IMG/VR virus record: IMGVR_UViG_3300035703_000003
From: a virus
Taxonomy: Duplodnaviria > Heunggongvirae > Uroviricota > Caudoviricetes
Length of the DNA stretch: 64,000 nucleotides
Strand: one strand, 5' to 3'
Below, in pieces: positions 1 to 17,140 of the stretch. The position numbers and the translations under genes were made by a program. Within the stretch, counting starts at the first letter, position 1. The number at the start of each line of letters is the position of its first letter. Below the pieces are notes generated by a model. It made no database searches. It was not told the DNA's origin and saw only the letters and a list, made by a program, of their open reading frames with translations.

Positions 1-71
1 TGACGGTTGGTTACGATCCAACGCTACCGAGTCCACAGCTCAGTGTGCTACCATTATCACTACATCAGGAT

Positions 72-147
72 TGGCCCTTGGGGACGGAATCGAACCGCCG
101 ACACCATGCTCTTCAGGCATGTGTTCTACCAACTGAACTACCCAAGG
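72..147 (-). tRNA. tRNA-Phe (anticodon GAA), CCA encoded
   Basis: Hand-folded cloverleaf on the reverse complement: acceptor CCTTGGG/CCCAAGG, D-arm GTTCAGTTGGTAGAAC, anticodon loop CTGAAGA, T-loop TTCGATT, 3' CCA. Confidence 0.8.
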
Positions 148-154
148 ATAAACT

Positions 155-240
155 GGTGGGGATGGATGGATTCGAACCAACTCACCTCTACAGGAACGGA
201 TTTACAGTCCGCCGCGACTCTCCAACTTCGCCGCATCCCC
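155..240 (-). tRNA. tRNA-Tyr (anticodon GTA), long variable arm, CCA encoded
   Basis: Acceptor GGGGATG/CATCCCC, anticodon stem GCGGA/TCCGT with loop CTGTAAA, about 14-nt variable arm, T-loop TTCGAAT. Confidence 0.75.
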
Positions 241-254
241 AAATTTAAACAGTA

Positions 255-470
255 ACCTTTTGCACCTGCACGATGTTGAATCGAACTCATCGTTTAGGGA
301 CTCGAACCCTGCTTCATTTACTCTCTTGCACCAGCAAGATCCAACTTATAGTTGGTCTAAAATGCTACTCCTGGTGGGGAACGATCCCACACGGAAAGTC
401 TCGAACCTTTCCGTAACCTCTTGCAGGAGCGGGCCTTGGGACTTTCGAGATCCTTTAGGCTTTGTCTATT
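255..470 (-). ncRNA. Unresolved tRNA-like or structured RNA region (1-2 elements)
   Basis: Two T-loop-like motifs (GGGACTCGAACCC at 297-309; TCTCGAACC at 399-407) and an AACGATCCC hairpin (376-390), but I could not close canonical acceptor stems by hand. Confidence 0.3.
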
Positions 471-546
471 TGGTGCTTCTAGGAAGAATCGAACTTCCTT
501 CTAGACGCTTATCGGGCGCCTGCCTTTCCATTAGACAGTTAGAAGC
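471..546 (-). tRNA. tRNA, anticodon GAT (Ile) as folded; C at position 33 is atypical
   Basis: Acceptor GCTTCTA/TAGAAGC, T-arm GGAAG-TTCGATT-CTTCC, anticodon stem GGCGC/GCGTC with loop CCGATAA, CCA encoded. D-stem register is irregular. Confidence 0.5.
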
Positions 547-551
547 ATTAT

Positions 552-628
552 TGGTCCCGCATACGGGTTTCGAACCCGTTTCTCCGACTTGAAAGGCCAG
601 CGACCATCACCGAGTAGTCCTATGCGAG
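552..628 (-). tRNA. tRNA-Glu (anticodon TTC)
   Basis: Acceptor CTCGCAT/ATGCGGG (one G-U), T-arm ACGGG-TTCGAAA-CCCGT, anticodon stem CTGGC/GTCGG (two G-U) with loop CTTTCAA, CCA encoded. Confidence 0.6.
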
Positions 629-635
629 ATATATT

Positions 636-711
636 TGGTTGTCCAGGGTGGGATTGAACCACCGACCCCAGTCTTATCAGGACTGTGCTACTACCACTGA
701 GCTACTGGACA
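636..711 (-). tRNA. tRNA-Ile (anticodon GAT)
   Basis: Acceptor TGTCCAG/CTGGACA, D-arm GCTCAGTGGTAG, anticodon stem CAGTC/GACTG with loop CTGATAA, T-arm GGTGG-TTCAATC-CCACC, CCA encoded. Confidence 0.75.
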
Positions 712-1045
712 ATAAACTCTATTTTTACAAAAGGCAGCGAGGGGATATGCTCCGGGTCCCTAAACCTGCTCCTCTTTTCGTTACACTAGGGAATGTAACT
801 ACTTCTGCTTACTTGCTCTGCCTATTCTAGAAATAGAGTAATTGGTAGCGACATTTGGTAACGCTCCAAATCTTCAGCCTTATGAGAGCCGAGTCGGCAC
901 TTGCCGTGTCGCCAAAATATTATTAGCTTGCTGCTAGATTTTTACTCTGCCGTTATCGCCGGACATTTCATCTTCTAACACGCCCATTTGAGTTTGTTTA
1001 TAGTGGTTACTCGCAGTCTCGTTCCGCATTTCCACTTTAGCCTAA

Positions 1046-1079
1046 TAAAAAACCCTCCTAGTATCTCTACTGGAGGGTG
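1046..1079 (-). terminator. Rho-independent terminator (minus orientation)
   Basis: CCCTCC...GGAGGG hairpin followed by a T-run on the minus strand (A-run on plus), downstream of the 1290..2051 gene. Confidence 0.5.
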
Positions 1080-1289
1080 TCATTGCGTTTATGTGTATCT
1101 ACACTTATCCGCTATAACCCTCCGAGAACTCAAAGAGATACTCGTGGCGTTCAAAACGCTTAATGCTAATCATGTGTTTAGTATTGTGAGTCATCTCTTG
1201 ATTTCCTTTTGCTTATGTTAGTAATATAGTGCTTTTATTTATCATCGTCAACCGTTTTCTTTGACAATTTAGACGTATTACAAAAAAAA

Positions 1290-2051
1290 TTAGTCTTCTG
1301 TTTGAACAAAACTTGTTCTGCATATCCTAGGGTAATTTGTTAAATTTTCATAGGCTTCGTGTGGATCAGTAAGAAGTTTGCCGACAGTTATAGGTCCGTA
1401 GTTAGTGATACGTTTAGAATCTATATTATACCCTTTGTCTTCTATTGCTTCTCTATTATCAGTTACAAATTTTACAAATTCTTTGTCCCTGTTCCAATCA
1501 TGAGTAATCGCATTACCTCGCAGAGGAAATTGAACAAAAAACTTAGGTAAAACTTCGCCTCTTGTACTTGCGTTTGCTAATAGTGATATGTCTTTCTCGT
1601 CATATGCATTGGTTATATTAGATCCATAAGGGTTTGTCGATATTATGTTTTCATACATGTAGATACACAGATCTCCAAACTCGGCTTCTCCATTACAGTG
1701 TTCATAATCGTCGTCTGTGAACTTTTTTATTAAATCCTTACTTACAGGTAATAAATTAATATAAGAAACCGACAAACTATATTCTGTAAATTCCGGGTAT
1801 AACTTGTACGGTGTTTCGTTGATGCGAATCATACATAAATGCGGGACTCTAATAATTTTTTCCCACAATGGAATAATGTTTTGTATTGCATCCATACTAG
1901 TGTCAATTCGCCATTCAATAGTTGCTTTTTCAATGTCAGTAGTAGGACGTCTAATATTATAATTTACACTATCAGATACATCGCTAGGATTGTCATATAT
2001 AAAACCGTCGTAATCAACTATATCTGTTAATCCAACTACGAATTTTAACAT
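1290..2051 (-). CDS. Hypothetical protein, paralog of the adjacent 2055..2858 gene
   Basis: 253-aa ORF. Shares N-terminal K(F)V(V/I)GLTD and a central EKATIEW(R/Q)(I/L)D motif with the neighbouring ORF. Confidence 0.6.
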   Translation of the reverse strand: MLKFVVGLTDIVDYDGFIYDNPSDVSDSVNYNIRRPTTDIEKATIEWRIDTSMDAIQNIIPLWEKIIRVPHLCMIRINETPYKLYPEFTEYSLSVSYINLLPVSKDLIKKFTDDDYEHCNGEAEFGDLCIYMYENIISTNPYGSNITNAYDEKDISLLANASTRGEVLPKFFVQFPLRGNAITHDWNRDKEFVKFVTDNREAIEDKGYNIDSKRITNYGPITVGKLLTDPHEAYENLTNYPRICRTSFVQTED

Positions 2052-2054
2052 AAA

Positions 2055-2858
2055 TTAATCCTCTACTATATCAATTCGACAAACTTTATTATAAGTTTGT
2101 ATTTTTTCAAATGCGTCCTCATAATTACCAATTAAATCTCCTATAACAAGACCACCTGTTTTTGTTTTGTTATCTGATATATAGTATCCTTTAGATTCCA
2201 GAACGTCGTTGTTACTCAGCATCCAACTTTTCTGACTAATTGACATTGTCTTAGTTGGTGTTCTCGCAGAATTAGAAACAAAACTTATCGTAAATGCAGG
2301 GTATACTACACGTTCTGCAGGACTGTCTGATAACAAGTCTGTTGTGTTCATAGTTTGTGCATAGTCTAATGTGCTACGTATATTTATCCCATTACGTTCA
2401 TATGAACTTACACTATCGAGTTCTAAACTACCGTAGACTGGGATTCTATCTGTTGATATATTATCGTAGTCGGTATCTGTATATAATGGAAAATCAATGC
2501 CTGTAACAGGAATCAGCGTTGTTAGTTCTACAAAAATATCTGCATTTACTAATCTAGTTTCAGAAGAAATCCAGCTAGTATAAATCACTGACATCATATG
2601 CAACCTATTAGATTTAATGATTTTGTATACATTTATTAAGTTAGTAACAGCAGGTAATGTGTAGTCTAACTGCCATTCAATAGTTGCCTTTTCGATTGAT
2701 AATTCGATATTATTCATTAAATTATACGCATCTCGATCAGGATTTAGATCATCTAACTCAGGTCTAGCTGATTCATCTAGTAACCTATAATTAGGAATAA
2801 AACTTTCACTTTCTAAATCTGTCAGACCTATTACAAACTTCGCAGACATATTTTTCAC
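2055..2858 (-). CDS. Hypothetical protein, paralog of 1290..2051
   Basis: 267-aa ORF abutting 1290..2051 with the shared motifs listed above. Confidence 0.6.
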   Translation of the reverse strand: MKNMSAKFVIGLTDLESESFIPNYRLLDESARPELDDLNPDRDAYNLMNNIELSIEKATIEWQLDYTLPAVTNLINVYKIIKSNRLHMMSVIYTSWISSETRLVNADIFVELTTLIPVTGIDFPLYTDTDYDNISTDRIPVYGSLELDSVSSYERNGINIRSTLDYAQTMNTTDLLSDSPAERVVYPAFTISFVSNSARTPTKTMSISQKSWMLSNNDVLESKGYYISDNKTKTGGLVIGDLIGNYEDAFEKIQTYNKVCRIDIVED

Positions 2859-2886
2859 CTTTACTGTTTAGTAAATGTATTTAGTA

Positions 2887-2960
2887 TGGTGCCGGTAGAG
2901 AGAATCGAACTCCCGTCAGCTGATTACTAATCAGCTGCTAAACCACTCAGCTATACCGGC
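2887..2960 (-). tRNA. tRNA, anticodon loop TTAGTAA (anticodon AGT as read, Thr-type; A34 unusual)
   Basis: Acceptor GCCGGTA/TACCGGC, anticodon stem AGCTGA/TCAGCT, T-arm GGGAG-TTCGATT-CTCTC, CCA encoded. Confidence 0.5.
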
Positions 2961-2965
2961 ATTAT

Positions 2966-3040
<75 letters not shown>

Positions 3041-3124
3041 AATGCCTACGCCCGAAAGCGTAGGGTGCTGGTCCTCTGTGTTCTTATCTTGGGATCACAG
3101 CGGGGGTGTTAAACTTATACAAGT

Positions 3125-3637
3125 TTAATTCTCGTATAACGATTCGTAATCATCGTCTGATTCGTAATCGTCGTTGTCGACGTATTCTTGCTCTTCTGGA
3201 GCAGAACCATACGCTTTGTAATAGTCTTCATTTTCTTTTAGTATACGAAGATCAGTACCAGTTAATGCAAACTTAAGTTGAAAAAACTCATCGTAATTAT
3301 ACAACTCAGTGATAAACCAAAGTGTTCCACAACCTCCACCTGCTTTTTTAATAACACCTGTTTCGATTGATAGATCTTCAATGGCTCTTTTTAACTTAGC
3401 ACCATAGCTAGTAATGATACGTAAAAATTGTTTCTTACTTCCTAGCTTGTTCTTATCTTCTTCTGTTAATGGTGTGATGATTGCAGTGTTAGAATCATCA
3501 ATTACTACTAAGCAGTTTTTAACTTTGATACTGCCTTTAGTGTGGTTGCTATCTGGAGTTTCTTTGGTAGTCCAAGGAACGCTACAGTTTACGTGGTTTA
3601 CATAAAATGTTTCGCCACGGAACTTAAGAACCCACAT
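3125..3637 (-). CDS. Hypothetical protein with strongly acidic C-terminal tail
   Basis: 170-aa ORF. C-terminus is EEQEYVDNDDYESDDDYESLYEN. No recognisable catalytic motif. Confidence 0.55.
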   Translation of the reverse strand: MWVLKFRGETFYVNHVNCSVPWTTKETPDSNHTKGSIKVKNCLVVIDDSNTAIITPLTEEDKNKLGSKKQFLRIITSYGAKLKRAIEDLSIETGVIKKAGGGCGTLWFITELYNYDEFFQLKFALTGTDLRILKENEDYYKAYGSAPEEQEYVDNDDYESDDDYESLYEN

Positions 3638-3741
3638 AGGGATAGTATCATCTTCTAAGTGTTTTTTGTTAAAATGAAAAACTACATCTTTACAAGCATA
3701 TTCAATCTACGACATTTTATTCTCCTAATTGTTCGTATAGT

Positions 3742-3816
3742 TGGTGCGCTCTACGGGTAACGATCCCGTCTACTAAGGGTTAGAATCCTCTGACAATCCA
3801 TCTTGTCCAAGAGCGC
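3742..3816 (-). ncRNA. Atypical tRNA-like element (T-loop ATCGTTA; anticodon arm ambiguous, CUA or UCU)
   Basis: CCA encoded, acceptor GCGCTCT/AGAGCGC pairs perfectly, D-arm GACA-AGATGGAT-TGTC, T-stem ACGGG/CCCGT. The T-loop is non-canonical and the anticodon stem has two mismatches whichever register is used. Confidence 0.4.
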
Positions 3817-3822
3817 AAATAA

Positions 3823-3896
3823 TGGCGAGGGTGCAGAGAGTCGAACTCTGGCTTGCGGTTTTGGAGACCGCCGTGCTACCATAACACTTCACCGAC
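3823..3896 (-). tRNA. tRNA-Trp-like (anticodon CCA); acceptor stem has two mismatches
   Basis: T-arm CAGAG-TTCGACT-CTCTG, anticodon stem GCGGT/ACCGC with loop CTCCAAA, D-arm GTGT-TATGGTA-GCAC. Acceptor is GTCGGTG vs CACCCTC (T.T and C.C at pairs 2 and 3). Confidence 0.5.
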
Positions 3897-3902
3897 ATAA
3901 AT

Positions 3903-3978
3903 TTGGAGCGGGCGAAGGGGATCGAACCCTCGACAATCTGCTTGGAAGGCAGGAGCTCTACCGCTGAGCTACACCCGC
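3903..3978 (-). tRNA. tRNA-Gly (anticodon TCC)
   Basis: Acceptor GCGGGTG/CGCCCGC, D-arm GCTCAGCGGTAGAGC, anticodon loop CTTCCAA, T-arm GAGGG-TTCGATC-CCCTT, CCA encoded. Confidence 0.7.
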
Positions 3979-4272
3979 ATTGAATCTCTATATAAACCGG
4001 TTACTATCATCCGGAGTTACTATTTCGTTGCAACAGATTAGTTTTAGACGTTAAACGACACTCCATGTGGATTTTGTTTCGGTAACCACTCAACCATATC
4101 CCCAACTTCTCTGACCCCGGAATGCACGTCGCAGGCAGCTGGCCCTTTTCGCTAGGTCTAAACTAGTTTACTTCAGTAGTCTTGTTTGGCAGTTGCAACA
4201 AACGGTCCCGCTTACCGAAAGTAGTAGACCGCTTTAGCAGTCTTGTTGTCGTTGCTCAACACTACAATTTAT

Positions 4273-4349
4273 TGGTCCGAGTAGCAGGATTTGAACCCAC
4301 GACATCCTGGTCCCAAACCAGGCGCTCTACCAAACTGAGCTACACTCGG
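4273..4349 (-). tRNA. tRNA-Pro (anticodon TGG)
   Basis: Acceptor CCGAGTG/TACTCGG, D-arm GCTCAGTTTGGTAGAGC, anticodon stem CCTGG/CCAGG with loop TTTGGGA, T-loop TTCAAAT, CCA encoded. Confidence 0.75.
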
Positions 4350-4357
4350 ATACATTT

Positions 4358-4436
4358 TGGTCTGGGTGAAAGGATTTGAACCTTCGACCTCTCGCTTCCA
4401 AGGCGAGCACTCTAACACAGGCTGAGCTACACCCAG
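4358..4436 (-). tRNA. tRNA, anticodon TGG (second Pro-type copy)
   Basis: Acceptor CACCCAG/CTGGGTG, anticodon stem CTCGC/GCGAG with loop CTTGGAA, T-loop TTCAAAT, CCA encoded. Confidence 0.65.
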
Positions 4437-4443
4437 ATATTAT

Positions 4444-4519
4444 TGGCTGGGAAGGTAGGATTCGAACCTACAACCAACGGATTCAAAGTCCGCTACTCTA
4501 CCAATTGAGCTACTTCCCA
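4444..4519 (-). tRNA. tRNA-Gln (anticodon TTG)
   Basis: Acceptor TGGGAAG/CTTCCCA, D-arm GCTCAATTGGTAGAGT, anticodon stem GCGGA/TCCGT with loop CTTTGAA, T-arm GTAGG-TTCGAAT-CCTAC, CCA encoded. Confidence 0.75.
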
Positions 4520-4527
4520 TCAACCTT

Positions 4528-4604
4528 TGGTGCGGATGGAGGGACTCGAACCCCCAACATCTGCGTTCTAAGCGCAGCGACTCTACCAATTGGCCTACAT
4601 CCGC
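4528..4604 (-). tRNA. Class-I-shaped tRNA with anticodon TAG (Leu codon CUA), short variable arm
   Basis: Acceptor GCGGATG/CATCCGC, discriminator A, D-region GGCCAATTGGTAGAGT, anticodon stem CTGCG/CGCAG with loop CTTAGAA, 5-nt variable loop, CCA encoded. Confidence 0.6.
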
Positions 4605-4610
4605 ATAATT

Positions 4611-4694
4611 TGGAGGTCGGTGCGTGAATCGAACACGCTACTTTTCAGTGCTATGGATTTGCAATCCAACCCCTTACCATCCGGGCCACCGACC
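4611..4694 (-). tRNA. tRNA (84 nt, long variable region); anticodon loop probably TTGCAAA (GCA), assignment uncertain
   Basis: Acceptor GGTCGGT/ACCGACC pairs perfectly, T-arm GCGTG-TTCGATT-CACGC, CCA encoded. Internal arms could not be folded unambiguously. Confidence 0.45.
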
Positions 4695-4702
4695 GTTGTA
4701 TT

Positions 4703-4777
4703 TGGTGCTGGTAGAGAGAATCGAACTCCCAATCTACTCATTACAAGTGAGTTGCCTTACCATTGGGCCATACCAGC
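4703..4777 (-). tRNA. tRNA-Thr (anticodon TGT)
   Basis: Acceptor GCTGGTA/TACCAGC, anticodon stem ACTCA/TGAGT with loop CTTGTAA, T-arm GGGAG-TTCGATT-CTCTC, CCA encoded. Confidence 0.75.
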
Positions 4778-5011
4778 GATATATTCGTATACTTCTTCGT
4801 ATGTCTTAAACATACGTGTTCCGTGTTTGCTAACAACTCTTACAGAGGAGCCAAAGCACTGAACTAAACCAAAACCAGGAAACCTACCGTTGCCTGGTCG
4901 TCTGTTATTCCATCTATTACGTTTACGCACAGGTTGTGTATAAACGTGTTCTATTCCTAATAGTTCTCCACATCTTGTGTAAAACTGTTCTTTTTCTTCT
5001 GATGTTTTCAT
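4757..5011 (-). CDS. Small basic hypothetical protein inside the tRNA cluster (3' end overlaps tRNA-Thr)
   Basis: 84-aa ORF rich in R/K/N (RKRNRWNNRRPGNGRF). Its context is otherwise non-coding, so the call is tentative. Confidence 0.3.
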   Translation of the reverse strand: MKTSEEKEQFYTRCGELLGIEHVYTQPVRKRNRWNNRRPGNGRFPGFGLVQCFGSSVRVVSKHGTRMFKTYEEVYEYIAGMAQW

Positions 5012-5062
5012 ATTGTCCTCTCACATATCTTTACGGTTTTAATGGCTTAACCGAAAACCTAT

Positions 5063-5137
5063 TGGAGCGGGTAACGGGATTCGAACCCGTGACCTGGTGC
5101 TTGGCAAGCAGCCGCTCTACCCCTGAGCTACACCCGC
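5063..5137 (-). tRNA. tRNA-Gly (anticodon GCC)
   Basis: Acceptor GCGGGTG/TACCCGC, D-arm GCTCAGGGGTAGAGC, anticodon loop TTGCCAA (one C.C in the stem), T-arm ACGGG-TTCGAAT-CCCGT, CCA encoded. Confidence 0.65.
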
Positions 5138-5144
5138 ATTTATT

Positions 5145-5220
5145 TGGTGGACCCTAGCGGGATCGAACCGCTGACCTACGGCTTGCAAAACCGTCGCTCT
5201 CCCAACTGAGCTAAGAGCCC
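5145..5220 (-). tRNA. tRNA-Ala (anticodon TGC)
   Basis: Acceptor GGGCTCT/AGGGTCC (two G-U), D-arm GCTCAGTTGGGAGAGC, anticodon stem ACGGT/GCCGT with loop TTTGCAA, T-arm AGCGG-TTCGATC-CCGCT, CCA encoded. Confidence 0.7.
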
Positions 5221-5659
5221 GTATTCTATTTATAAACTACGTTTAGAAGATACACATAAACTTAGCATAACGCTCTCCGGACTAAGCCTCTGTTAGTATA
5301 TATGTGTATCGTCAAAACGTAATGTTTTGCCTAGCTTGAGATTACAGCGTAGGACGGGAGCCTTTGAGCATTACCGTTGGCCTTGCGAGCCACGTTCTCT
5401 CGTTATCCACAGAAGCCTGTTACGGTCATCCTGTATCTCCCAATGGTGCCTTTTTTGGAGAGTGGCGTTTCTCTCGTCGCACGTTGCTACTCGTCCTTCT
5501 ATCCTTCGTCTGCCTTGCGAGCAGTTCAGAGTCGCTAAACCCTTACGCTATCTTTCCGAACAACTACATCAGCCTTGCGAGCATCCGTAGACCACATTCT
5601 CTTTCGAGTGTGGCATTAACCACCTTTCACAACGTACCGGGACAGTCTTTCGCTTTTGT

Positions 5660-5730
5660 TTCAATAGTAGGAGTTGAACCTACAATCCATCGTTCTGAAT
5701 ACGATTGCATTACCGTTATGCAATATTGCG
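5660..5730 (-). ncRNA. tRNA-like element with anticodon loop ATTCAGA (anticodon UCA, would read UGA); acceptor weak, no CCA
   Basis: T-arm GTAGG-TTCAACT-CCTAC, 5-nt variable, anticodon stem ATCGT/ACGAT perfect, D-arm GCAT-AACGGTA-ATGC. Only 5 of 7 acceptor pairs form. Confidence 0.35.
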
Positions 5731-6181
5731 AACCTACTTCGATGTGCTGTCCCAGTTGCACCATATCTTGTTAGATACAGTATACAACACACCGACTGTC
5801 TTTTGCCTTGCGGGCTACTCAACGTCACTTCAAGTATCCGGGGCCTAACCCTTCCACTCTTGTAATGCTACTACGCCTTTCCTTGCGGGGTCAGACAGTG
5901 TAGCTACCTGTTAGTATTCTCCATTCGTTGCTTTGGCTGTATGCTGTTCGGGCGCCAACCCTCTTACTACTCACCGACCGGCTCTGTAGCTATCCTTTCG
6001 GACAACACACGCAACTTACTGGATACCGCCTTTCTACGGACGGGACTTGCTTTCGCATTGCGAGTCAAGTCTAACCCAGGCTTGTATAGCTGGACCATTG
6101 CTGGCGCAAGTTTATAGGAAACCTTGCTTTGGGTGCATTGCTGCACTTACCCTTAAGTTGGACGCTATACCGCCCATATAA

Positions 6182-6292
6182 ACTGTGTTTAAAACTATAC
6201 ATTGTGGAATCGAACCACCGAGCCGACCACAAGGTCGACCTGTTCCATAACATCGGCGTGGCCTACGCCTTATGTATAGTTTAAAACACAGT
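6182..6292 (-). ncRNA. Structured element: 22-bp perfect inverted repeat enclosing about 65 nt with a T-arm-like hairpin and two further hairpins
   Basis: ACTGTGTTTAAAACTATACAT (6182-6203) is the exact reverse complement of 6270-6291. The interior contains GTGG-AATCGAA-CCAC, CGACC-ACAA-GGTCG and GGCGT-GGCCT-ACGCC. Confidence 0.5.
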
Positions 6293-6346
6293 CATTACTA
6301 AATTTTCAAAGAGCGTATAAGCAACTTGTTTGCTGCTTATGTTCTT

Positions 6347-6375
6347 AATATAGTATGTGTTGCTGTCATTGTCAA
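6347..6375 (-). promoter_or_regulatory. Sigma70-type promoter TTGACA-N17-TATATT, minus strand, reading into the ncRNA locus
   Basis: Reverse complement reads TTGACAatgacagcaacacatacTATATT. It belongs to the repeated promoter-leader element 6301-6380. Confidence 0.6.
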
Positions 6376-6575
6376 CACCTTTTTTTATCTTTTTTTATTT
6401 AATTACTTGAGCCTGTTGCCACAACATCAACAGCATTATCTACAAATTTTCGGCCGTGTAGTTATGGACTTGCGTCCTTGGGGTAAGTCATTACAGTTAC
6501 TTGGAAGGATGCATTTCCTTTGTTACTACAGCCGCTAAACCGTAGCACCTTTCACTTACTGACACTCAAGTATTT

Positions 6576-6649
6576 TGGCGACCCTACGGGGACTCGAACC
6601 CCGTTCACCAGGTAGACAGCCTAGTGTAATACCCATATACCATAGGGCC
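6576..6649 (-). tRNA. tRNA-Asp (anticodon GTC)
   Basis: Acceptor GGCCCTA/TAGGGTC, anticodon stem CTAGG/CCTGG with loop CTGTCTA, T-arm CGGGG-TTCGAGT-CCCCG, CCA encoded. Confidence 0.65.
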
Positions 6650-6655
6650 AATTTA

Positions 6656-6746
6656 TGGCGGACACTCAGGGATTCGAACCCTGGGACGCCTTTCGACGCC
6701 GTCGGTTTTCAAGACCGGTGCAATAATCCATCTCTGCCAAGTGTCC
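6656..6746 (-). tRNA. tRNA-Ser (anticodon TGA), long variable arm
   Basis: Acceptor GGACACT/AGTGTCC, anticodon loop CTTGAAA, variable-arm hairpin GGCGTC-GAAA-GGCGTC, T-arm CAGGG-TTCGAAT-CCCTG, CCA encoded. Confidence 0.7.
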
Positions 6747-6749
6747 GTA

Positions 6750-6835
6750 TTGCTTTAGACTGGGCTGTTTGCAGCTTTAACCCGGCTGGTTACGGGTGCG
6801 TTCCTCACAAGGGCCGATTATATCACAGTCTAAAC
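6750..6835. ncRNA. Short inverted-repeat-bounded element (9-bp IR, TTTAGACTG/CAGTCTAAA), possible small RNA
   Basis: IR flanks about 63 nt lying between two tRNA genes. No tRNA fold was found. Confidence 0.25.
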
Positions 6836-6836
6836 T

Positions 6837-6912
6837 TGGTTGCGTTGGGTGGGACTCGAACCCACGATCTTTTGGTTATGAGCCAAACGAGATGCCGCTT
6901 CTCTACCCCGCA
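6837..6912 (-). tRNA. tRNA with anticodon CAT (Met, fMet or Ile2 type); acceptor has two G.A mismatches
   Basis: T-arm GTGGG-TTCGAGT-CCCAC, anticodon stem TTTGG/CCAAA with loop CTCATAA, D-arm GAGA-AGCGGCA-TCTC. Acceptor is TGCGGGG vs CAACGCA. Confidence 0.5.
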
Positions 6913-6927
6913 ATAGTCCTATTATAA

Positions 6928-7015
6928 TGGCGGAGCGACTGGGAGTCGAACCCAGTGAGGGATTGCTCCCTCTACAGATTAGCAATCTGCTGCATTACCA
7001 TCCTGCCCCCGCTCC
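6928..7015 (-). tRNA. tRNA-Ser (anticodon GCT), long variable arm
   Basis: Acceptor GGAGCGG/TCGCTCC, anticodon stem GCAGA/TCTGT with loop TTGCTAA, variable hairpin GAGGGA-GCAA-TCCCTC, T-arm CTGGG-TTCGACT-CCCAG, CCA encoded. Confidence 0.7.
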
Positions 7016-7022
7016 GTATATT

Positions 7023-7098
7023 TGGCTCCCTGACGTGGGCTCGAACCACGGACCCGATGATTAACAGTCATCTGCTCTACCAACTGAGCTATCAGGAA
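7023..7098 (-). tRNA. tRNA-Asn (anticodon GTT)
   Basis: Acceptor TTCCTGA/TCAGGGA, D-arm GCTCAGTTGGTAGAGC, anticodon stem GATGA/TCATC with loop CTGTTAA, T-arm CGTGG-TTCGAGC-CCACG, CCA encoded. Confidence 0.75.
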
Positions 7099-7329
7099 AC
7101 ACTATGCTTTTGGCTCTACTCAGCGTCATCCAGAGCGATTTAACTAGAGGGGTGCTTTTCTCCAGTACCGTTATTCTTGTGGCTTACGGAGTTATCCTCC
7201 TGCACTAGTTTATTCTATAAATACACGATGATAAAAAAGACTTGGTCTATTATATTACCGTGTATTATTGTTGTCAGCTTTTTTCTAGCTGTAAGCAATC
7301 TTTTTACCACATGGCATAATCATCAAATG

Positions 7330-7697
7330 CTGTTGGAAATACTTCACAGCACTGAATAATTCAATTGCTCGTTCTACTTACACATACACCCCAGCATTTC
7401 TGCGTAGTCCGCAAAGTGTTGGGTGGCCTACCCTCATTCACAGGATGTATGTGAAAATAGAATCGTTGTCTCTACTTACAAGTATGTTAGTCTGTCTTTG
7501 AAACAGCGAGCGCCCGTCGGCTTTTTACATAGGTCAACCCAACCACGCACGGAGTCGAACCGTGCTACTCCCATTTCTAACATACATGTAAGTAGAGATT
7601 TGATAATGTATGTTGGTTGCATACATCGTCTACTTACAATCCCTATCATCGCTTTCGCTAAGGAATGTGATAAGCTATAATAGCTTACCGTAATACG
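7330..7697 (-). ncRNA. Second structured non-coding locus downstream of the duplicated promoter-leader element (T-arm-like CACGG-TTCGACT-CCGTG, nested hairpins)
   Basis: No credible ORF. Inverted repeats are TGTAAGTAGAG/CTCTACTTACA and ATGTATG...CATACAT. It lies downstream of the 7698-7777 element, which is homologous to 6301-6380. Confidence 0.35.
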
Positions 7698-7777
7698 TCT
7701 AAATTGTCAAAGAGCGTGTAAACAACTTCTTGCTTACTGTGTTAACTTAGCGTCTTGTTTTTGCTTTGTCAACAACT
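7698..7777 (-). repeat. Promoter-leader repeat, copy 2 (homologous to 6301-6380)
   Basis: Shared blocks are CAAAGAGCGT(A/G)TAA(G/A)CAACTT...TTGCT...GTCAACA. Reverse complement gives TTGACA-N17-TAAGTT. Confidence 0.5.
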
Positions 7778-7836
7778 TTTTTCTTTTTTGTTTGAGTGCT
7801 TCAATCTTTGTTACAAGTTTCTGCGTCCCTTACTAG

Positions 7837-7868
7837 TTATATATAGTGTATGATGTCTTGCCTGTCAA
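7837..7868 (-). promoter_or_regulatory. Sigma70-type promoter TTGACA-N17/18-TATATA (minus strand)
   Basis: Reverse complement reads TTGACAggcaagacatcatacacTATATA and shares the ...ACACTATAT core with the other early promoters. Confidence 0.5.
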
Positions 7869-7875
7869 GTATTAT

Positions 7876-7935
7876 TTTGTCTTTTTTTTTGCCATTAAAA
7901 AAGCCCCGCAGCTTTCGCTTGGGGCCTTGGTGTTC
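7876..7935 (-). terminator. Terminator-like GC hairpin with flanking T/A runs
   Basis: GCCCCGCAGCTTTCGCTTGGGGC hairpin. On the minus strand it is followed by TTTTTTAATGGCAAAAAAAAA. Confidence 0.4.
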
Positions 7936-8294
7936 GAACTTTATAAGTTGTTCAGCTACCTCGGCCCGCCTGCACGGAATCGACACTAGGATTGCCCCCT
8001 AGTGACCATGTATTCTGTGCTGTGGTTCCGCATGTAATCATTGAACTGTTTATTCCTTATATAAGTTTATTTATCATCTGAGATAAAATTATCTTACACT
8101 TTTATTTATCATCTTGAAAATATTTAGTCTGCGTCCGGCAACTGCAAAGCCTGAGAAAGCGTTTATCGGTTTTACCAGCAGTGTTAGGACTTCTTACTTC
8201 GAATTATCTTATCGGTCCATTTTTACGCCTTAAGTAGAGAATCTCAATTATAAACTACAAGACGCAGACTAAAACTTTGGTGCCCTAAGGCGTG

Positions 8295-8735
8295 TTACAT
8301 TCCTAGTTTATACGAGCTGTTGCTCACAGTAAACGATTGCTTCCAAGACCATTCGTCTAGAACAAGTTGGTTAAACACATCGTCTTCAAGTTCGATTACG
8401 TCTTCAACACTTAGTTCAAGCATACGAGCTGCACGATTGTAATCACTTTCGTAACTACGTGGTGCAGAAGGGATACCTTTAATCTCTTTAATTTTTTCTA
8501 GATCACCTGTGTTTGCTAGTTTTGCATTTTCTTTTGTGATCTTAACAGTAAGTGTTTTGTAATCGTTAACTGCTTCATCGTATTCAGCAATGTGCTTAAT
8601 CTTGTTTTGACGAACAATCATTAGGAGCTCGTCTTTTTTCATCTTTACACTACGCATAGCGTTTCTCCCATTCATACGCATATTAAACTTCCTTAAAAGA
8701 ATATTTGGTGCCCCCGGTCGGACTCGAACCGACAC
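8295..8735 (-). CDS. Hypothetical protein
   Basis: 146-aa ORF in the minus-strand gene series, ending next to a tRNA. Confidence 0.55.
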   Translation of the reverse strand: MSVRVRPGAPNILLRKFNMRMNGRNAMRSVKMKKDELLMIVRQNKIKHIAEYDEAVNDYKTLTVKITKENAKLANTGDLEKIKEIKGIPSAPRSYESDYNRAARMLELSVEDVIELEDDVFNQLVLDEWSWKQSFTVSNSSYKLGM

Positions 8736-8782
8736 TATGCGGATTTTGAATCCGCCGACTCTACCAATTGGCCTACAGAGGC
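8706..8782 (-). tRNA. Class-I-shaped tRNA with anticodon CAA (Leu codon UUG)
   Basis: Same scaffold as 4528..4604 and 10426..10502: acceptor 3' strand CGGGGGC, discriminator A, D-region GGCCAATTGGTAGAGT, T-arm GTCGG-TTCGAGT-CCGAC. Anticodon stem GCGGA/TCCGC with loop TTCAAAA, 5-nt variable loop. Confidence 0.6.
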
Positions 8783-9069
8783 GATATTAAAACAGAGAGG
8801 AAAGAGTGAGTAATAAAGTTCTAGCAAAGTGCATGTAGCGTGGTATACAGACCTACTTTTGCAAAAAACAAATCGCAATCTACAATGCTTATATTTCCGA
8901 TTATCAACATGCAGTGTCAATTAAGACGAATATAATAAAATCGGAACACATAGCTGGAGACCATAAACGATCATGTTATGCAAGTAACGCTTGCCCGCCT
9001 CTATTCTCTTTTCTCTTTCCTACTCTGGGTAGTTTCGGGCAAGTTGCCTTGCCCTGGGTCTACCAAAAC

Positions 9070-9669
9070 TTATTCTACAATACCTGCACGAGCAAGGAAA
9101 TGCTCTGCTTCATCGTCAAGCACAATTGTAGTGCTTACGTTAAGCTCTAGCAACGAGTCTTGCAGTGCAGTCTTTACTCGCTTTAGACGAGCGAGTTCGG
9201 CTTTGAATTCTTCGATCTTCTCTTTATCGAAGATGTTAGTAGTGACAGTGTCGTCACCGAAACGACCGTAAACGTCTGCTTTGTCACGACCTTTAATCTT
9301 GCCTAGCTTACCGACAAGAACATCGTTAGCTACTGCAGGCTCTAGCTTGCTTAGACGCCCGTATAGCTGCATGTCTTTGTCTAGCATTGCTACATCAGCT
9401 AGCAAGCTATCAATACCGGAAGCGGCGTTAGCATGGGCTACTGCCTTGCGAATTTCGTAAAGAACGCCTAGCAGCTTGCCACGAGTAGCAAGATGTGTCT
9501 CAAAGCGGTTAGTAGCTTCGGACACCTTTTCGCTAGGCTTTTCGAATTCGTTAACCGAAACTTCTGTGCCTAGATCTAGTGTGCCTAGCATTTCATTAAT
9601 TGCGTGTTGTAGTGCGTTTGCTTTACGAAGTGAGATTTCCATTACTTTGTCCTTTGTGTTCGTTTTCAA
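9070..9669 (-). CDS. Hypothetical protein
   Basis: 199-aa ORF with overlapping genes upstream and downstream, consistent with operonic packing. Confidence 0.55.
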   Translation of the reverse strand: MKTNTKDKVMEISLRKANALQHAINEMLGTLDLGTEVSVNEFEKPSEKVSEATNRFETHLATRGKLLGVLYEIRKAVAHANAASGIDSLLADVAMLDKDMQLYGRLSKLEPAVANDVLVGKLGKIKGRDKADVYGRFGDDTVTTNIFDKEKIEEFKAELARLKRVKTALQDSLLELNVSTTIVLDDEAEHFLARAGIVE

Positions 9670-10246
9670 TTTTCTTTGCGATTACTTTGTGTAGACCTGG
9701 ATTAATAACTAGCATTTGTGTTACAACGTTTTCACGAATATAGTTTCTAATGTATGAAGTGTCAAGATTTGATTTGTCTTCAACCCAACTTACATTTTTT
9801 CGTTTACACCAATCAACAAACTCGTGCTTTCTGTTTAACCTAAACGGCCTAATAACGTTTTCATTTTGGTAAGGAATAATTTTACCCTCACCGTGCATAC
9901 TTGACCAAATCCACGTTTCTACACAATCATCCAAATGATGACAAGTGATAACAGGCTTTTGCCAGGCATTTAAAACTTTATAACGTTCGTTCCTCCAGTG
10001 TTCTTCTTGGCTTACGCCCTTAGGAACAACAGTGTTGATATACGAAGTGTATAGTTTTAGTTTAGTATCGTCTGCATACTGCAAAAGAAACTTGTGTGCT
10101 TGTTCACTTGTTTCTGTGCCGTGATGCACAAATTGTAGAGTAATACGATGATTTCTTTTTAGAAAATCAACAATAGCCATACTATCAACGCCGCCACTGC
10201 AAGCAATTACAACGTCTCTGGGTAGTTTGCTTTGGACTTTAATCAT
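9623..10246 (-). CDS. tilS: TilS-like tRNA(Ile)-lysidine synthetase catalytic domain (PP-loop ATPase)
   Basis: PP-loop SGGVDS near the N-terminus. Blocks FVHHGT, CHHLDDCVETW and WVEDKSNLDTSYIRNYIR resemble the TilS N-domain motifs (HVHHGL, QHLDDQCETF, WIEDESNQDDSYDRNFLR) as I recall them. It lies immediately downstream of two CAU tRNAs. Confidence 0.7.
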   Translation of the reverse strand: MIKVQSKLPRDVVIACSGGVDSMAIVDFLKRNHRITLQFVHHGTETSEQAHKFLLQYADDTKLKLYTSYINTVVPKGVSQEEHWRNERYKVLNAWQKPVITCHHLDDCVETWIWSSMHGEGKIIPYQNENVIRPFRLNRKHEFVDWCKRKNVSWVEDKSNLDTSYIRNYIRENVVTQMLVINPGLHKVIAKKIENEHKGQSNGNLTS

Positions 10247-10262
10247 CGCATTACTCTAGTTT

Positions 10263-10338
10263 GGTGGAAGGACTGGGACTCGAACCCAGATAGTTACGTT
10301 TATGAGACGTATGCATTCACCAATTATACTATCCTTCC
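10263..10338 (-). tRNA. tRNA with anticodon CAT (copy A; Met, fMet or Ile2)
   Basis: Acceptor GGAAGGA/TCCTTCC perfect, anticodon stem TACGT/ACGTA with loop CTCATAA, T-arm CTGGG-TTCGAGT-CCCAG, CCA encoded. Confidence 0.7.
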
Positions 10339-10342
10339 GATT

Positions 10343-10419
10343 TGGTAGGGGATACCGGACTTGAACCGATAACCTGCCGATTATGAGTCGGACGCTCTAA
10401 CCAATTGAGCTAATCCCCC
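10343..10419 (-). tRNA. tRNA with anticodon CAT (copy B; Met, fMet or Ile2)
   Basis: Acceptor GGGGGAT/ATCCCCT, D-arm GCTCAATTGGTTAGAGC, anticodon loop CTCATAA, T-arm ATCGG-TTCAAGT-CCGGT, CCA encoded. Confidence 0.7.
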
Positions 10420-10425
10420 TAACTT

Positions 10426-10502
10426 TGGTGCCCCCGGTCGGACTCGAACCGACACTACGCAGATTTTAAGTCTGCTGACTCTACCTATTGGCCTACAAGG
10501 GC
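10426..10502 (-). tRNA. Class-I-shaped tRNA with anticodon TAA (Leu codon UUA)
   Basis: Same scaffold as 8706..8782 (acceptor 3' strand CGGGGGC, D-region GGCCAATAGGTAGAGT, identical T-arm). Anticodon stem GCAGA/TCTGC with loop CTTAAAA, 5-nt variable loop. Confidence 0.6.
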
Positions 10503-10509
10503 GTAGTTC

Positions 10510-10592
10510 TGGTGCGGGCACCCGGACTCGAACCGGGACGCATTGAGCAAGAGATTTTAAGTCTCTCGTGGCTACCATTTCACCATGCCCGC
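10510..10592 (-). tRNA. tRNA-Leu (anticodon TAA), class II with long variable arm
   Basis: Acceptor GCGGGCA/TGCCCGC, anticodon stem AGAGA/TCTCT with loop CTTAAAA, about 11-nt variable region, T-arm CCCGG-TTCGAGT-CCGGG, CCA encoded. Confidence 0.65.
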
Positions 10593-10605
10593 ATAAGTTG
10601 TTTTT

Positions 10606-10682
<77 letters not shown>

Positions 10683-10697
10683 AGCAAAAAACAACTT

Positions 10698-10991
10698 TTA
10701 TATCTGAACAGGTAATCGACCAGTTACGCTATACATTTTCTTGATAATAGCATTAACGTCGGATTCTGTCAAGTATCCACGAACACCTTTGTTACCGGTA
10801 ATTCCAGGAAGCTCAACAAATCCAAATTCAACTCCATCATCGGAGCCGTAAGTCGCAATTTCAAAGAGATCTGAGTCTTTGCCCATACCGTCGTCAATGA
10901 CACTTAGTTGGTAGGATCCAAAACCAAGTAGAACTTGATTTCCGTTCCTCCATTTATCTTTTTGAATCATTGTAAAGTCTGACAGTTTCAT
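10698..10991 (-). CDS. Hypothetical protein
   Basis: 97-aa ORF. Confidence 0.45.
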   Translation of the reverse strand: MKLSDFTMIQKDKWRNGNQVLLGFGSYQLSVIDDGMGKDSDLFEIATYGSDDGVEFGFVELPGITGNKGVRGYLTESDVNAIIKKMYSVTGRLPVQI

Positions 10992-11385
10992 TTTGTATCT
11001 CTTGTTACAGTATTATTTATATCTTAATTTTCACGGTTTGTCAATATTATTCTTCTGTAACAGTAACTTTTTTATCTTTTGTTTCAGGATCGAACGTCAT
11101 ACTTTGTACAATTGCCTTTACATCATTTTTATCTGTTGCAACTACTACAACTTCATTATCAACACGAATGTAATATGCCATTAGTTTGACTCCTGACCGT
11201 AAGGGATGAACTCAACAGTCCACTTACCATCAGACCAAACGTTAAGGTACTTCATCCAGTATTTGTGCATACCGTATTTGTTTTTGTGAAGCCGAGTGAG
11301 GTAGCTTAGTGTGCCGCTGTGAATCATCTTGTTCATCCTCTGTTTTCTACTCTATATACATAGCACGTAGGTTGAGTGCTGTCAA

Positions 11386-11601
11386 TCAAAAAGGTTCTGG
11401 TTCTTCCACCTGGACGTATTCTTCTTCGGTCAGTCCTGCGATGTAGCTTTCGATGGTGTCCGAAAGGTGCATTTCGATGTCTTCCTGTAGGCTTTCCAGT
11501 GTGTCTTTGGGGAACTCAGGCAGTCCCGCTCTTAGTGTGTTCATAGCACTTTGGACCGCAAGGTCTACCAGAGTGTTGAGTCGTTGTTCAGAAACTACCA
11601 T
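11386..11601 (-). CDS. Small acidic hypothetical protein
   Basis: 71-aa ORF, acidic (EEEYVQVEEPEPF). Confidence 0.4.
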   Translation of the reverse strand: MVVSEQRLNTLVDLAVQSAMNTLRAGLPEFPKDTLESLQEDIEMHLSDTIESYIAGLTEEEYVQVEEPEPF

Positions 11602-11616
11602 TTTGGTTATCCTTTT

Positions 11617-11991
11617 CTACCATTTAATTCCAAGAGCCGCAAGTTCAGCTGGCGAAAGTTTGCTGATAGCGGTCAGCCGCAGATCAGCCTTACGCTTTTC
11701 GGCAGCTTCACGAGCAAGTCGCACAGCATCTTCTTTCTTATGACGTTTCCACCATGCTTCAACGTGTCCACGCTTTACACCAGCTTCTTTCCAGTCGATC
11801 CGTGCCAGCAGCCCATCAAGACCGCCAACAATCACACCTTCTTCGGCAGCAGTGAAGACGCCGCAAAGTGTAGCTTCGAAAGATTCGATATCCATCCCGT
11901 GGCGGGTTTCTTTACGAGGGGCATCCCAATCATCAGATCTGCAAGGCATTTTGTATCTCCTTATTTCGTATAGACGAAGTGCTTGTTCCAC
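11617..11991 (-). CDS. Hypothetical protein
   Basis: 124-aa ORF. Confidence 0.45.
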   Translation of the reverse strand: MEQALRLYEIRRYKMPCRSDDWDAPRKETRHGMDIESFEATLCGVFTAAEEGVIVGGLDGLLARIDWKEAGVKRGHVEAWWKRHKKEDAVRLAREAAEKRKADLRLTAISKLSPAELAALGIKW

Positions 11992-12374
11992 CGACCAACT
12001 TTGATGTCAGTGTAGAACGCAATGTGGAAGTAATCAGTCATGCTGTCGCTCTCGTCGAACCAGTCCGTGCCACGCATTGCAGCAAGAAGTTCGTTAAACA
12101 TCGAGCGGATCTTACCTTTGTAGTGGTCGTTGATCCAGTAAGTGTTAACACTGTAATGACCGTCGACAGGGTAAAAACGCTCATTGCGGCGTTCAGCAAC
12201 TTCGAGGTTAGACTTGTTAGCTTCACCAATAAGGTCAAGTTTGCCTTCAGTGATCGTCACAACAAGCGAGGAATGGTTATCAACACTGATCGAGCCTTTC
12301 ATGCCATACTTTTTCAGCACAGCTTTGATGGCCGGAGCCTTAGCACGTTTCATCTCTTGCGACACATAAGCCAT
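11961..12374 (-). CDS. Hypothetical basic protein
   Basis: 137-aa ORF located directly downstream of the promoter at 12409-12437. Confidence 0.55.
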   Translation of the reverse strand: MAYVSQEMKRAKAPAIKAVLKKYGMKGSISVDNHSSLVVTITEGKLDLIGEANKSNLEVAERRNERFYPVDGHYSVNTYWINDHYKGKIRSMFNELLAAMRGTDWFDESDSMTDYFHIAFYTDIKVGRWNKHFVYTK

Positions 12375-12408: not shown

Positions 12409-12437
12409 AATATAGTGTAAGACGTCTTGGTTGTCAA
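12409..12437 (-). promoter_or_regulatory. Sigma70-type early promoter TTGACA-N17-TATATT with AAGACGTCTT palindrome in the spacer
   Basis: Reverse complement reads TTGACAaccaagacgtcttacacTATATT. Confidence 0.65.
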
Positions 12438-17039: not shown

Positions 17040-17126
17040 AGTTGTTTCTCCTTATATGTGCCTATATTTTTTTGTGCCTAAGTATACCTCAGTGGCCAAA
17101 TACTTATTAACCACTAATGTAACGTA

Positions 17127-17140
17127 TTTTATTTATCATG
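17127..17140 (-). promoter_or_regulatory. Conserved GATGATAAATAAAA-type motif (late-promoter-like, compare T4 TATAAATA) upstream of the gp32-like gene
   Basis: This is one of four copies of TTTTATTTATCAT(C/G) on the plus strand (1233-1246, 8066-8078, 8100-8113, 17127-17140). Confidence 0.3.

Follow-up and report, generated by a model that had tools for sequence, protein, structure and literature searches.

The 64,000-nt stretch of tailed-phage DNA analysed here (the window; IMG/VR record IMGVR_UViG_3300035703_000003) carries two similar elements of about 80 bp, at 6301-6380 (copy 1) and 7698-7777 (copy 2), each followed by structured sequence that seems not to encode protein, and the locus raises the question of what such a duplicated cassette does for the RNA that it heads. 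Our analysis indicates that the transcribed part of the cassette is a leader of the kind found in bacterial ribosomal RNA (rrn) operons, with a boxB-like hairpin followed directly by boxA, and that it likely recruits host Nus factors for the antitermination and chaperoning of untranslated phage transcripts, the functional steps being predicted from sequence. Such a signal would explain both the duplication of the cassette and its conservation.

The original prediction had described two elements that share blocks in the same order on the plus strand, each giving a TTGACA -35 on the minus strand, with a -10 of TATATT in copy 1 and TAAGTT in copy 2. The elements are indeed homologous promoter-leader cassettes on the minus strand, and the hexamers were read correctly. 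Their identity is far above chance: global alignment of the minus strands yields 60 identical positions in 86 columns (score 28, compared with -7.5 ± 4.5 and a maximum of 9 in 2000 shuffles), and local alignment of the 120-nt neighbourhoods of both copies scores 69 against 18 ± 2.8 (maximum 29) for shuffles. Tiling of the entire window produced no further match comparable to these two. The most conserved block that they share, a hairpin followed by ACGCTCTTTGA(A/C)AATTTAG (7737..7699 and 6340..6298), lies 3' of the -10 hexamer and is therefore predicted to be transcribed and is not part of the promoter. The only two exact boxA cores in the 64 kb lie in these two leaders, and sister promoters of the same family that precede ORFs (open reading frames; at 12437, 12718 and 30881) run directly to a ribosome-binding site without boxA. 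The A-rich tract upstream of both copies is seen in most related loci (designated by L and a number), and the TAAGTT -10 of copy 2 is kept in L008, L011, L012, L026 and L027.

The block that follows the hairpin has the identity of an rrn boxA. Over GCTCTTT.ACAATTTA, the phage leader and the Escherichia coli rrnH leader GCTCTTTAACAATTTA are identical at 15 of 16 positions, and the cores GCTCTTTGACAA (copy 2) and GCTCTTTGAAAA (copy 1) match the E. coli rrn boxA GCUCUUUAACAA at 10-11 of 12. The rrnH leader reads ...GCGAC...GTCGCaacTGCTCTTTAACAATTTATCAGACAATCTGTGTGGG, and a hairpin precedes boxA there too; in rrn operons the order is boxB, boxA, boxC (5' to 3'), just after promoter P2 (PMC10250234). 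The distance from the -10 hexamer of a consensus-like promoter to the start of boxA is 27-31 nt in copies 1 and 2 and at the majority of related loci. When 185,579 species genomes were scanned for the exact phage 19-mer, a search that we judge too strict for host identification, 11 matches were obtained. Two lie in rrn leaders, both of Pirellulales, with 16S rRNA starting 177 nt downstream in Lacipirellula (L032) and 169 nt downstream in the other genome (L031); of the remaining nine, two come from phage contigs that were binned wrongly, and the others seem to be due to chance or to coding sequence. A Phycisphaerales metagenome-assembled genome (MAG) from Lake Mendota includes a 3-kb contig that closely matches the copy-2 region, being nearly identical to it, and another related contig was binned in an Emticicia MAG. 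The Pirellulales matches and the MAG-binned contigs (loci L027, L031, L032 and L036) are a possible, if weak, clue to the host.

The hairpin, on the other hand, varies in sequence and is conserved in its pairing. Hairpins with a stem of 5 bp or more and a loop of 3-8 nt, ending 0-3 nt 5' of boxA, were found in 26 of 39 distinct leaders, compared with 17% of control positions chosen at random within the same loci (p = 8e-12), and the order hairpin, then boxA, holds in all leaders. At least ten different stem sequences occur, among them a compensatory series that runs from TAAGCA/TGCTTA (copy 1 of the window) through TAAGCA/TGTTTA (L012) to TAAACA/TGTTTA (L026). Since MAFFT alone mis-registers the 5' strands of boxB, we used a covariance model built on 20 leaders, which gave 57 matches in 0.8 Mb. 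In the model-fitted alignment of 51 distinct leaders, whose pair counts lean towards the modelled structure, seven of seven pairs vary on both sides, with 37 double-change cells as opposed to 12.4 ± 2.8 in shuffles (reached in 0 of 500) and a covariation score of 0.232 as opposed to 0.101 (0 of 500); sliding the partner by 1-3 columns gave 0.03-0.06. That pairing is kept while the sequence varies argues for selection at the level of RNA.

Two kinds of long untranslated RNA follow the leader in the window. Downstream of copy 1 is a GOLLD RNA (Rfam RF02032) of about 850 nt, followed by tRNA genes. Its 3' domain (5795..5333) scores 193.7 bits against a gathering score of 150 (E = 8.7e-54) and covers the whole model (positions 1-416 of 416); the leader module and this domain are separated by about 380 nt, and the 5' domain probably extends from about 6176 (UGGGCGGUAUAGCGUCC) to 5796, a start that we place there because the same sequence directly follows boxA at independent GOLLD loci. 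A tRNA-like gene with a UCA (opal-reading) anticodon, labelled 'SeC' by ARAGORN, sits in the GOLLD linker (5730..5658). GOLLD RNAs are known for a 5' domain that varies and spans about 400 nt, for a variable linker in which a tRNA can be embedded and for a place in phage tRNA islands (Weinberg 2009; Kretsch 2025, PMC12286853), and the window RNA, full-length with a linker tRNA in a phage tRNA island, is akin to them in all of these. It differs in the promoter and boxB-boxA leader that stand 5' of the 5' domain and are not in the Rfam model. Assembly into a 14-mer nanocage is known for the env-38 GOLLD only (PMC12286853). Downstream of copy 2 are a structured spacer and a cluster of five tRNA genes that begins with tRNA-Asn. 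The original prediction had both copies followed by ORF-free, hairpin-rich sequence, which agrees with what we find: between 5800 and 7700 the minus strand holds no ORFs other than short ones, and the 456 nt 3' of copy 2 have a fold z-score of -6.98 relative to shuffles. Its proposal of a family of phage small-RNA transcription units holds in that the units are non-coding and structured, but their products are not simply small RNAs, copy 1 heading the giant GOLLD and copy 2 a modular leader with five tRNAs; likewise, the leader that it proposed is real, although it had recognised neither the rrn-type boxB-boxA signal nor GOLLD.

A search of other phage genomes for the cassette, which that prediction had proposed, showed that it recurs in many. 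Scanning IMG/VR for the 19-mer returned 26 contigs, nearly all with an A-rich tract, TTGACA-17-TATATT, a hairpin of differing sequence and then the invariant 19-mer. On the same strand, tRNA genes or GOLLD follow the leader in 32 of its 41 occurrences; in most of the remaining nine, the stored sequence ends within 1.1 kb on the downstream side. The distance from boxA to the GOLLD 3' half is 503-597 nt in six loci and 1045 nt in a seventh. The close relatives L012, L026, L027 and L019 have the same layout as the window, in which tRNA-Asn and GOLLD are each preceded by a leader. To avoid circularity, we also drew an independent sample with a GOLLD-internal pattern (37 distinct loci, confirmed with an nhmmer profile) and searched it with the boxA pattern G[CT]TCTTT[GA]A[ACT]AA: nine of the 37 have boxA upstream on the same strand, none downstream and one antisense. 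In eight of the nine, boxA lies 394-573 nt before the GOLLD 3' half with its own TTGACA/-10 promoter and hairpin, and in most of those eight the GOLLD 5' domain (UGGGCGGUAUAGCGUCC...) begins 10-20 nt after boxA, whose flavour varies by lineage (GCTCTTTGACAATTGAA; GTTCTTTGAAAAGTAAA).

The arrangement extends to cultured phages. In Phaeobacter phage MD18 boxA heads a tRNA array that ends in an Rfam-confirmed GOLLD, and in Roseobacter phage DSS3P8 it heads one that ends in a blastn match to the GOLLD region of the window. Short-query blastn against cultured phages otherwise gave mostly noise, except for these Roseobacter phages and the Vibrio phage Ceto group. The T5-like Vibrio phage Ceto (L041, MG649966, ~4040-4120) has TTGACA...GATACT, the hairpin TTCCCaaGGGAA and a boxA of the gamma-proteobacterial type, ACACGCTCTTTAACAATTTGG; this leader sits upstream of the pre-early A2/A1 protein genes in the terminal-repeat region, and several related Vibrio phages gave the same blastn match. 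In MD18 (L039) an alpha-proteobacterial permuted tmRNA gene lies directly 3' of GOLLD (3214-3629).

The placing of an rrn-type signal before GOLLD and before a tRNA cluster suggests that the phage uses host rRNA transcription machinery for long non-coding RNAs. Host RNA polymerase of the sigma-70 type would start at or just before the boxB-like hairpin, the start sites being predicted from the promoters; boxA (GCUCUUUGA(C/A)AA), directly after the hairpin in the nascent RNA, would be bound by host NusB-NusE (S10), which would nucleate a complex of NusA, NusG, SuhB and S4 on the polymerase. The polymerase so modified would be expected to resist Rho-dependent termination, to elongate faster and to chaperone the RNA co-transcriptionally, and in the window the signal stands only before long untranslated units (GOLLD and a tRNA array for copy 1, a structured leader and the tRNA-Asn cluster for copy 2), whose long helices may be processed in the manner of RNase III. 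In rrn operons boxA alone is necessary and sufficient for formation of the rRNA transcription antitermination complex, rrnTAC (PMC10250234). What is observed directly in the phages is identity with rrn boxA, the order of the elements, covariation of the hairpin, linkage on one strand to tRNA or GOLLD genes in dozens of phages, and the lack of boxA at the protein-coding promoters of the window; binding of Nus factors and its consequences are predictions.

The likeness to the rrn leader antiterminator lies in the element order after a strong promoter, in the 19-mer identical to that of Pirellulales rrn leaders, and in what follows, a long and highly structured RNA that is not translated and is presumably transcribed together with tRNAs; a CUGUGU-type helix strand at rrn-like spacing in copy 1 and many relatives may add to it. 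The phage leader differs from the rrn leader in being virus-encoded, in heading GOLLD and tRNA arrays, in helices that enclose tRNA-like inserts of 42-145 nt and not 16S or 23S rRNA, and in position 8 of boxA, which is G. Use of boxA outside rRNA has precedents: it carries RNA polymerase through CRISPR arrays, long untranslated transcripts that would otherwise be Rho substrates (Stringer et al. 2020, PMC7665894), and the boxA of suhB acts repressively (Baniulyte et al. 2017, PMC5725501). Those are host loci, whereas the boxA described here is viral, accompanied by a covarying boxB-like hairpin and placed before tRNAs or GOLLD. The lambdoid nut sites share with it the use of boxA by a phage for processive antitermination, with host Nus factors in nut and a predicted role for them here, but in nut boxA comes before boxB, phage N is needed and protein-coding early operons are controlled, as opposed to the rrn-like order and non-coding targets of the phage leader.

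Several observations weigh against this interpretation. Position 8 of the phage boxA is G where the gamma-proteobacterial consensus GYTCTTTAANA (PMC5725501) has A, a consensus that may not be that of the host; the C-variant of boxA contains TTGACA and could double as a -35; and, at E <= 0.1, the covariance model built from phage leaders missed the rrnH leader of E. coli. About two-thirds of the independently sampled GOLLD loci (n = 37) have no match to the boxA pattern, and Sinorhizobium phage Phosso has GOLLD without a recognisable boxA within 500 nt, so the link between boxA and GOLLD is frequent and not universal. For the rrn loci of E. coli, the literature reports that Nus factors are not needed against Rho and that deletion of boxA lowers 30S activity just 2-3-fold; in light of this, the anti-Rho half of the proposed mechanism may matter less than folding or elongation speed.

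Could the copies simply be a strong promoter that was recently duplicated, with the leader as a functionless passenger? Copies 1 and 2 are 70% identical over ~86 columns, similar TTGACA-17-TATATT promoters occur throughout the window, and a third copy (below) shares the promoter part only. We nevertheless regard this as very unlikely, for the 19-mer is invariant in 26 phage contigs whose flanks are otherwise unalignable, is better conserved than the promoter spacer and has the same sequence as a bacterial rrn leader element, while the hairpin varies and keeps its pairing. That the conserved block acts as DNA, either as an operator for a phage or host regulator or as a second -35, is improbable too: all 41 occurrences have one orientation relative to the downstream tRNA or GOLLD genes, copy 1 and many loci have TTGAAA and no conserved -10, the adjacent hairpin covaries, and the match to rrn boxA is near-exact. 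This is so even though TTGACA occurs inside GCTCTTTGACAA and, in copy 2, has TAAGCT as a possible partner 17 nt further on, and even though an inverted 23-24-nt copy, conserved in L043, lies beside promoter copy 3; being unable to act as a sense-strand boxA, that inverted partial copy hints at a possible role at the DNA level and is the sole observation to favour one.

Phages are the classic users of boxA and boxB, and many hairpins carry a GNRA-like loop (GAAG, GCAA, GAAA), as does lambda boxB, which would fit a nut-like site at which a phage N-like protein binds the hairpin instead of a purely host-driven rrn-type complex. We give this only a small chance, given that the hairpin precedes boxA as in rrn and not the reverse as in nut, that close relatives differ freely in the sequence and loop of the hairpin, and that boxA by itself suffices for rrnTAC (PMC10250234). 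A lambda-type nut site in the strict sense, with boxA 5' of boxB and an N protein, does not fit the element order found, an N-like protein not having been searched for. Nor do we favour the view that the leader serves mainly to process or stabilise the RNA, be it through a 5' hairpin that wards off RNase E or pyrophosphohydrolase or as a signal to RNase III or RNase P, and that it resembles boxA by coincidence. The hairpin stands at the predicted 5' end, and each unit, like other parts of the tRNA island, has helices of 18-22 bp resembling RNase III substrates. It is most unlikely, however, that chance produced both a 15/16 match to the E. coli boxA and the exact 19-mer in two rrn leaders, as far ahead of 16S as boxA canonically lies, and the invariant part is the single-stranded 19-mer and not the hairpin, which makes this account highly improbable. 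Taken together, strand specificity, a covarying hairpin beside an invariant single-stranded block and exact identity with bacterial rrn leaders are less consistent with any of these four explanations than with an rrn-type boxB-boxA leader.

Antitermination by boxA and GOLLD are each already known. A full-text literature search, in which subscription journals were thinly covered, found no paper linking GOLLD to boxA or Nus antitermination, and none that connects boxA with the tRNA arrays of phages or with jumbo phages, save unrelated uses of the words. The function and biogenesis of GOLLD, a 14-mer nanocage RNA, are open questions (PMC12286853), to which an rrn-type leader at many GOLLD genes offers a testable handle. 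If the rrn-type reading is right, GOLLD and phage tRNAs would be made by a Nus-modified polymerase that resists Rho, elongates fast and chaperones very large RNAs, and virus-encoded non-coding operons would join host rRNA, CRISPR arrays and the early operons of lambdoid phages as users of boxA antitermination, which may account for the ability of phages to transcribe untranslated arrays of several kilobases where the host has Rho. In metagenomic phage genomes the leader also shows where such units begin, the flavour of its boxA may aid host prediction, and the cultured Roseobacter phages DSS3P8 and MD18 are a possible experimental system.

A bolder version, which we think unlikely as a whole, is that the phage non-coding operons mimic rRNA operons wholesale, with strong tandem promoters, a boxB-boxA-boxC-like leader and 20-bp helices of the leader-trailer type, flanking tRNA-like mini-RNAs that an RNase III-type activity would excise; the host rrn complex would then make and fold the GOLLD nanocage RNA and the tRNAs, the abundant leaders may titrate Nus factors from host rrn and so help to take over the host, and the invariant GUAAGUAGA/UCUACUUAC triple repeats may act as switches between alternative pairings during this processing. 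A second strong promoter, TTGACA-17-TATATA (7840-7868, minus strand), lies 96 nt 5' of the copy-2 -35, just after an intrinsic terminator (7897-7926, minus strand), and such tandem promoters ahead of the copy-2 unit recall rrn P1-P2.

Features of the two units and of the partial third copy, in window coordinates
Feature	Position	Strand	Remarks
Copy 1, A-rich UP-element-like tract	6376..6400	-	sequence reading
Copy 1, promoter	-35 TTGACA 6375..6370; -10 TATATT 6352..6347	-	17-nt spacer; predicted
Copy 1, boxB-like hairpin ATAAGCAGC-AAACAA-GTTGCTTAT	6317..6340	-	
Copy 1, boxA 19-mer ACGCTCTTTGAAAATTTAG	6298..6316	-	core GCTCTTTGAAAA 6314..6303
Copy 1, first module, 21-bp helix ACTGTGTTTTAAACTATACAT/ATGTATAGTTTTAAACACAGT	6182..6292	-	strands 6292-6272/6202-6182; 95% complementary
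GOLLD RNA	5333..6181	-	Rfam RF02032
Copy 2, A-rich UP-element-like tract ACTCAAACAAAAAAGAAAAAAGTTG	7773..7797	-	sequence reading
Copy 2, promoter	-35 TTGACA 7772..7767; -10 TAAGTT 7749..7744	-	17-nt spacer; predicted
Copy 2, boxB-like hairpin GTAAGCAA-GAAG-TTGTTTAC	7718..7737	-	at or near predicted RNA 5' end
Copy 2, boxA 19-mer ACGCTCTTTGACAATTTAG	7699..7717	-	core GCTCTTTGACAA 7715..7704
Structured ORF-free spacer, copy-2 boxA to tRNA-Asn	7099..7698	-	600 nt
Spacer, hairpin	7689..7671	-	
Spacer, module YUUAG-(GNRA hairpin)-CGAUGAUAG	7668..7639	-	covarying stems
Spacer, invariant GUAAGUAGA/UCUACUUAC hairpin	7638..7587	-	
Spacer, 22-bp helix	7598-7577/7490-7469	-	encloses T-arm-like hairpin 7566..7546 (CACGG-TTCGACT-CCGTG)
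Spacer, 20-bp helix	7462-7443/7391-7372	-	
Internal promoter CTGACA-17-TATAAT	7277..7249	-	150 nt 5' of tRNA-Asn
tRNA cluster Asn(gtt), Ser(gct), Met(cat), Ser(tga), Asp(gtc)	6576..7098	-	ARAGORN and Rfam tRNA
Copy 3, promoter-only: TTGACG-17-TATATT, then ACATAAGCA	1251..1223	-	partial copy
Inverted exact 23-mer (24 nt by reading) TCTTTGACAATTTAGACGTATTA(C)	1258-1280	+	0 expected by chance

The first module of the copy-1 unit stands between boxA and GOLLD. The 5' strand of its helix starts ACUGUGUUU (boxC-like CUGUGU; (A)CUGUGUUUU), 10 nt after the boxA core; E. coli reads ...AATTTATCAGACAATCTGTGTGGG for comparison, and boxC of E. coli, UCUGUGUGGG, is the 5' strand of the leader-trailer helix and lies ~18 nt after boxA. 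The copy-1 helix is reminiscent of the rrn leader-trailer helix. By sequence reading, its 69-nt insert (6271..6203) has acceptor-, D- and T-like arms, but where an anticodon arm would stand it has a 7-bp/4-nt hairpin. In L012, L027, L004 and L019 boxA is followed by homologous ACTGTGTTT... helices, 12-24 bp long, and strands like ACTGTGTTT/TCTGTTTTC occur in many loci, copy 2 having no such strand at that distance; an ungapped helix of at least 12 bp after boxA was found in 16 of 36 cases as opposed to 12% of controls, a modest excess only. In related GOLLDs, the embedded tRNAs carry UCA, UGA or unusual anticodon loops.

The spacer of the copy-2 unit is modular and is conserved with covarying stems, read by eye, in at least 11 loci. 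Its helices of 20-22 bp each surround a variable insert with T-arm-like hairpins and are each followed by another GUAAGUAGA; the T-arm-like CACGG-TTCGACT-CCGTG and the nested inverted repeats noticed in the original prediction are present, and the former is kept, with changes, in relatives. RNAalifold on a MAFFT alignment of the spacer start recovered the invariant GUAAGUAGA/UCUACUUAC stem only, with zero covariation, and a search of the spacer for ROOL or any other Rfam family gave nothing meaningful even at E <= 10. Two candidate assignments did not hold up. A kink-turn in UUAG-(GNRA hairpin)-GAUGAUAG was rejected as a firm assignment, since the non-bulged strand reads UA and not GA and three of 11 homologues have GAUAAU at the key G; and the T-arm-like hairpins (7566..7546, and that in 6271..6203) were not called as tRNAs by ARAGORN, nor matched by Rfam at E <= 1 (1-12000) or E <= 10 (7100-7720). 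The word GTAAGTAGA occurs three times on the minus strand together with one complementary TCTACTTAC, all four sites of the window falling within 7373-7637 (265 nt), and three copies facing a single complement imply mutually exclusive helices. The same repeat design with other words (GAAAACAGA/TCTGTTTTC; GTAAATAGAG/CTCTATTTTC) was seen in L006, L010, L015 and L021.

The tRNA order Asn-Ser... follows a homologous leader in many loci, and both cassettes sit in a minus-strand island of 30 tRNA genes (ARAGORN). At least six long helices occur in this island: in its ORF-free parts, six inverted repeats of 18-22 nt, 86-95% complementary, each enclose a structured insert of 42-125 nt, at 716-839, 5238-5321, 6182-6292, 7372-7462, 7469-7598 and 8118-8278. 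From their sequence, these repeats are possible processing helices of the RNase III type. The insert at 5259-5300 (CUAACAGAGGCUUAGUCCGGAGAGCGUUAUGCUAAG) recurs in L008, L011, L019 and L036, and amber-suppressor-like tRNAs (CUA; 'Pyl' in ARAGORN) occur in the tRNA arrays of L003, L004, L006 and L021.

Copy 3 shares with the other two the promoter and the next nine bases only and has no sense-strand boxA. On its 3' side the minus strand holds a ribosome-binding site, a 29-aa ORF (MTHNTKHMISIKRFERHEYLFEFSEGYSG, 1194..1105) and a strong terminator (1085..1045), and the region is almost unchanged in L043, where the 29-aa ORF is nearly identical. The inverted 23-24-mer corresponds to the 3' part of the copy-2 boxA and the sequence beyond, without the GC of boxA; it lies directly upstream of the copy-3 -35, roughly from -40 to -62 relative to that promoter, and scored weakly in the leader covariance model (21.2 bits). 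L043, the only relative spanning this region among the related loci, has one change in it, though the neighbouring ORF is only 66% identical. The spacers of promoter-like sites on the minus strand at ~1230-1246 (copy 3), ~8075, ~8110 and ~17125-17140 share GATGATAAATAAA(A), which may mark a second promoter subclass or a regulator site. Between tRNA clusters lie two adjacent paralogous ORFs with similar N-terminal motifs (1290-2051 and 2055-2858, minus strand; 253 and 267 aa), for the first of which one IMG/VR relative only was found.

The phage itself is a large myovirus with a tail sheath, a UvsX-like recombinase, a gp32-like single-stranded DNA-binding protein and a major head protein. A search of INPHARED gave no close relatives, megablast matches being tRNA-sized only. 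Its large terminase is 58% identical to those of PA5oct-like Pseudomonas jumbo phages and 54% identical to that of Sinorhizobium phage Phosso.

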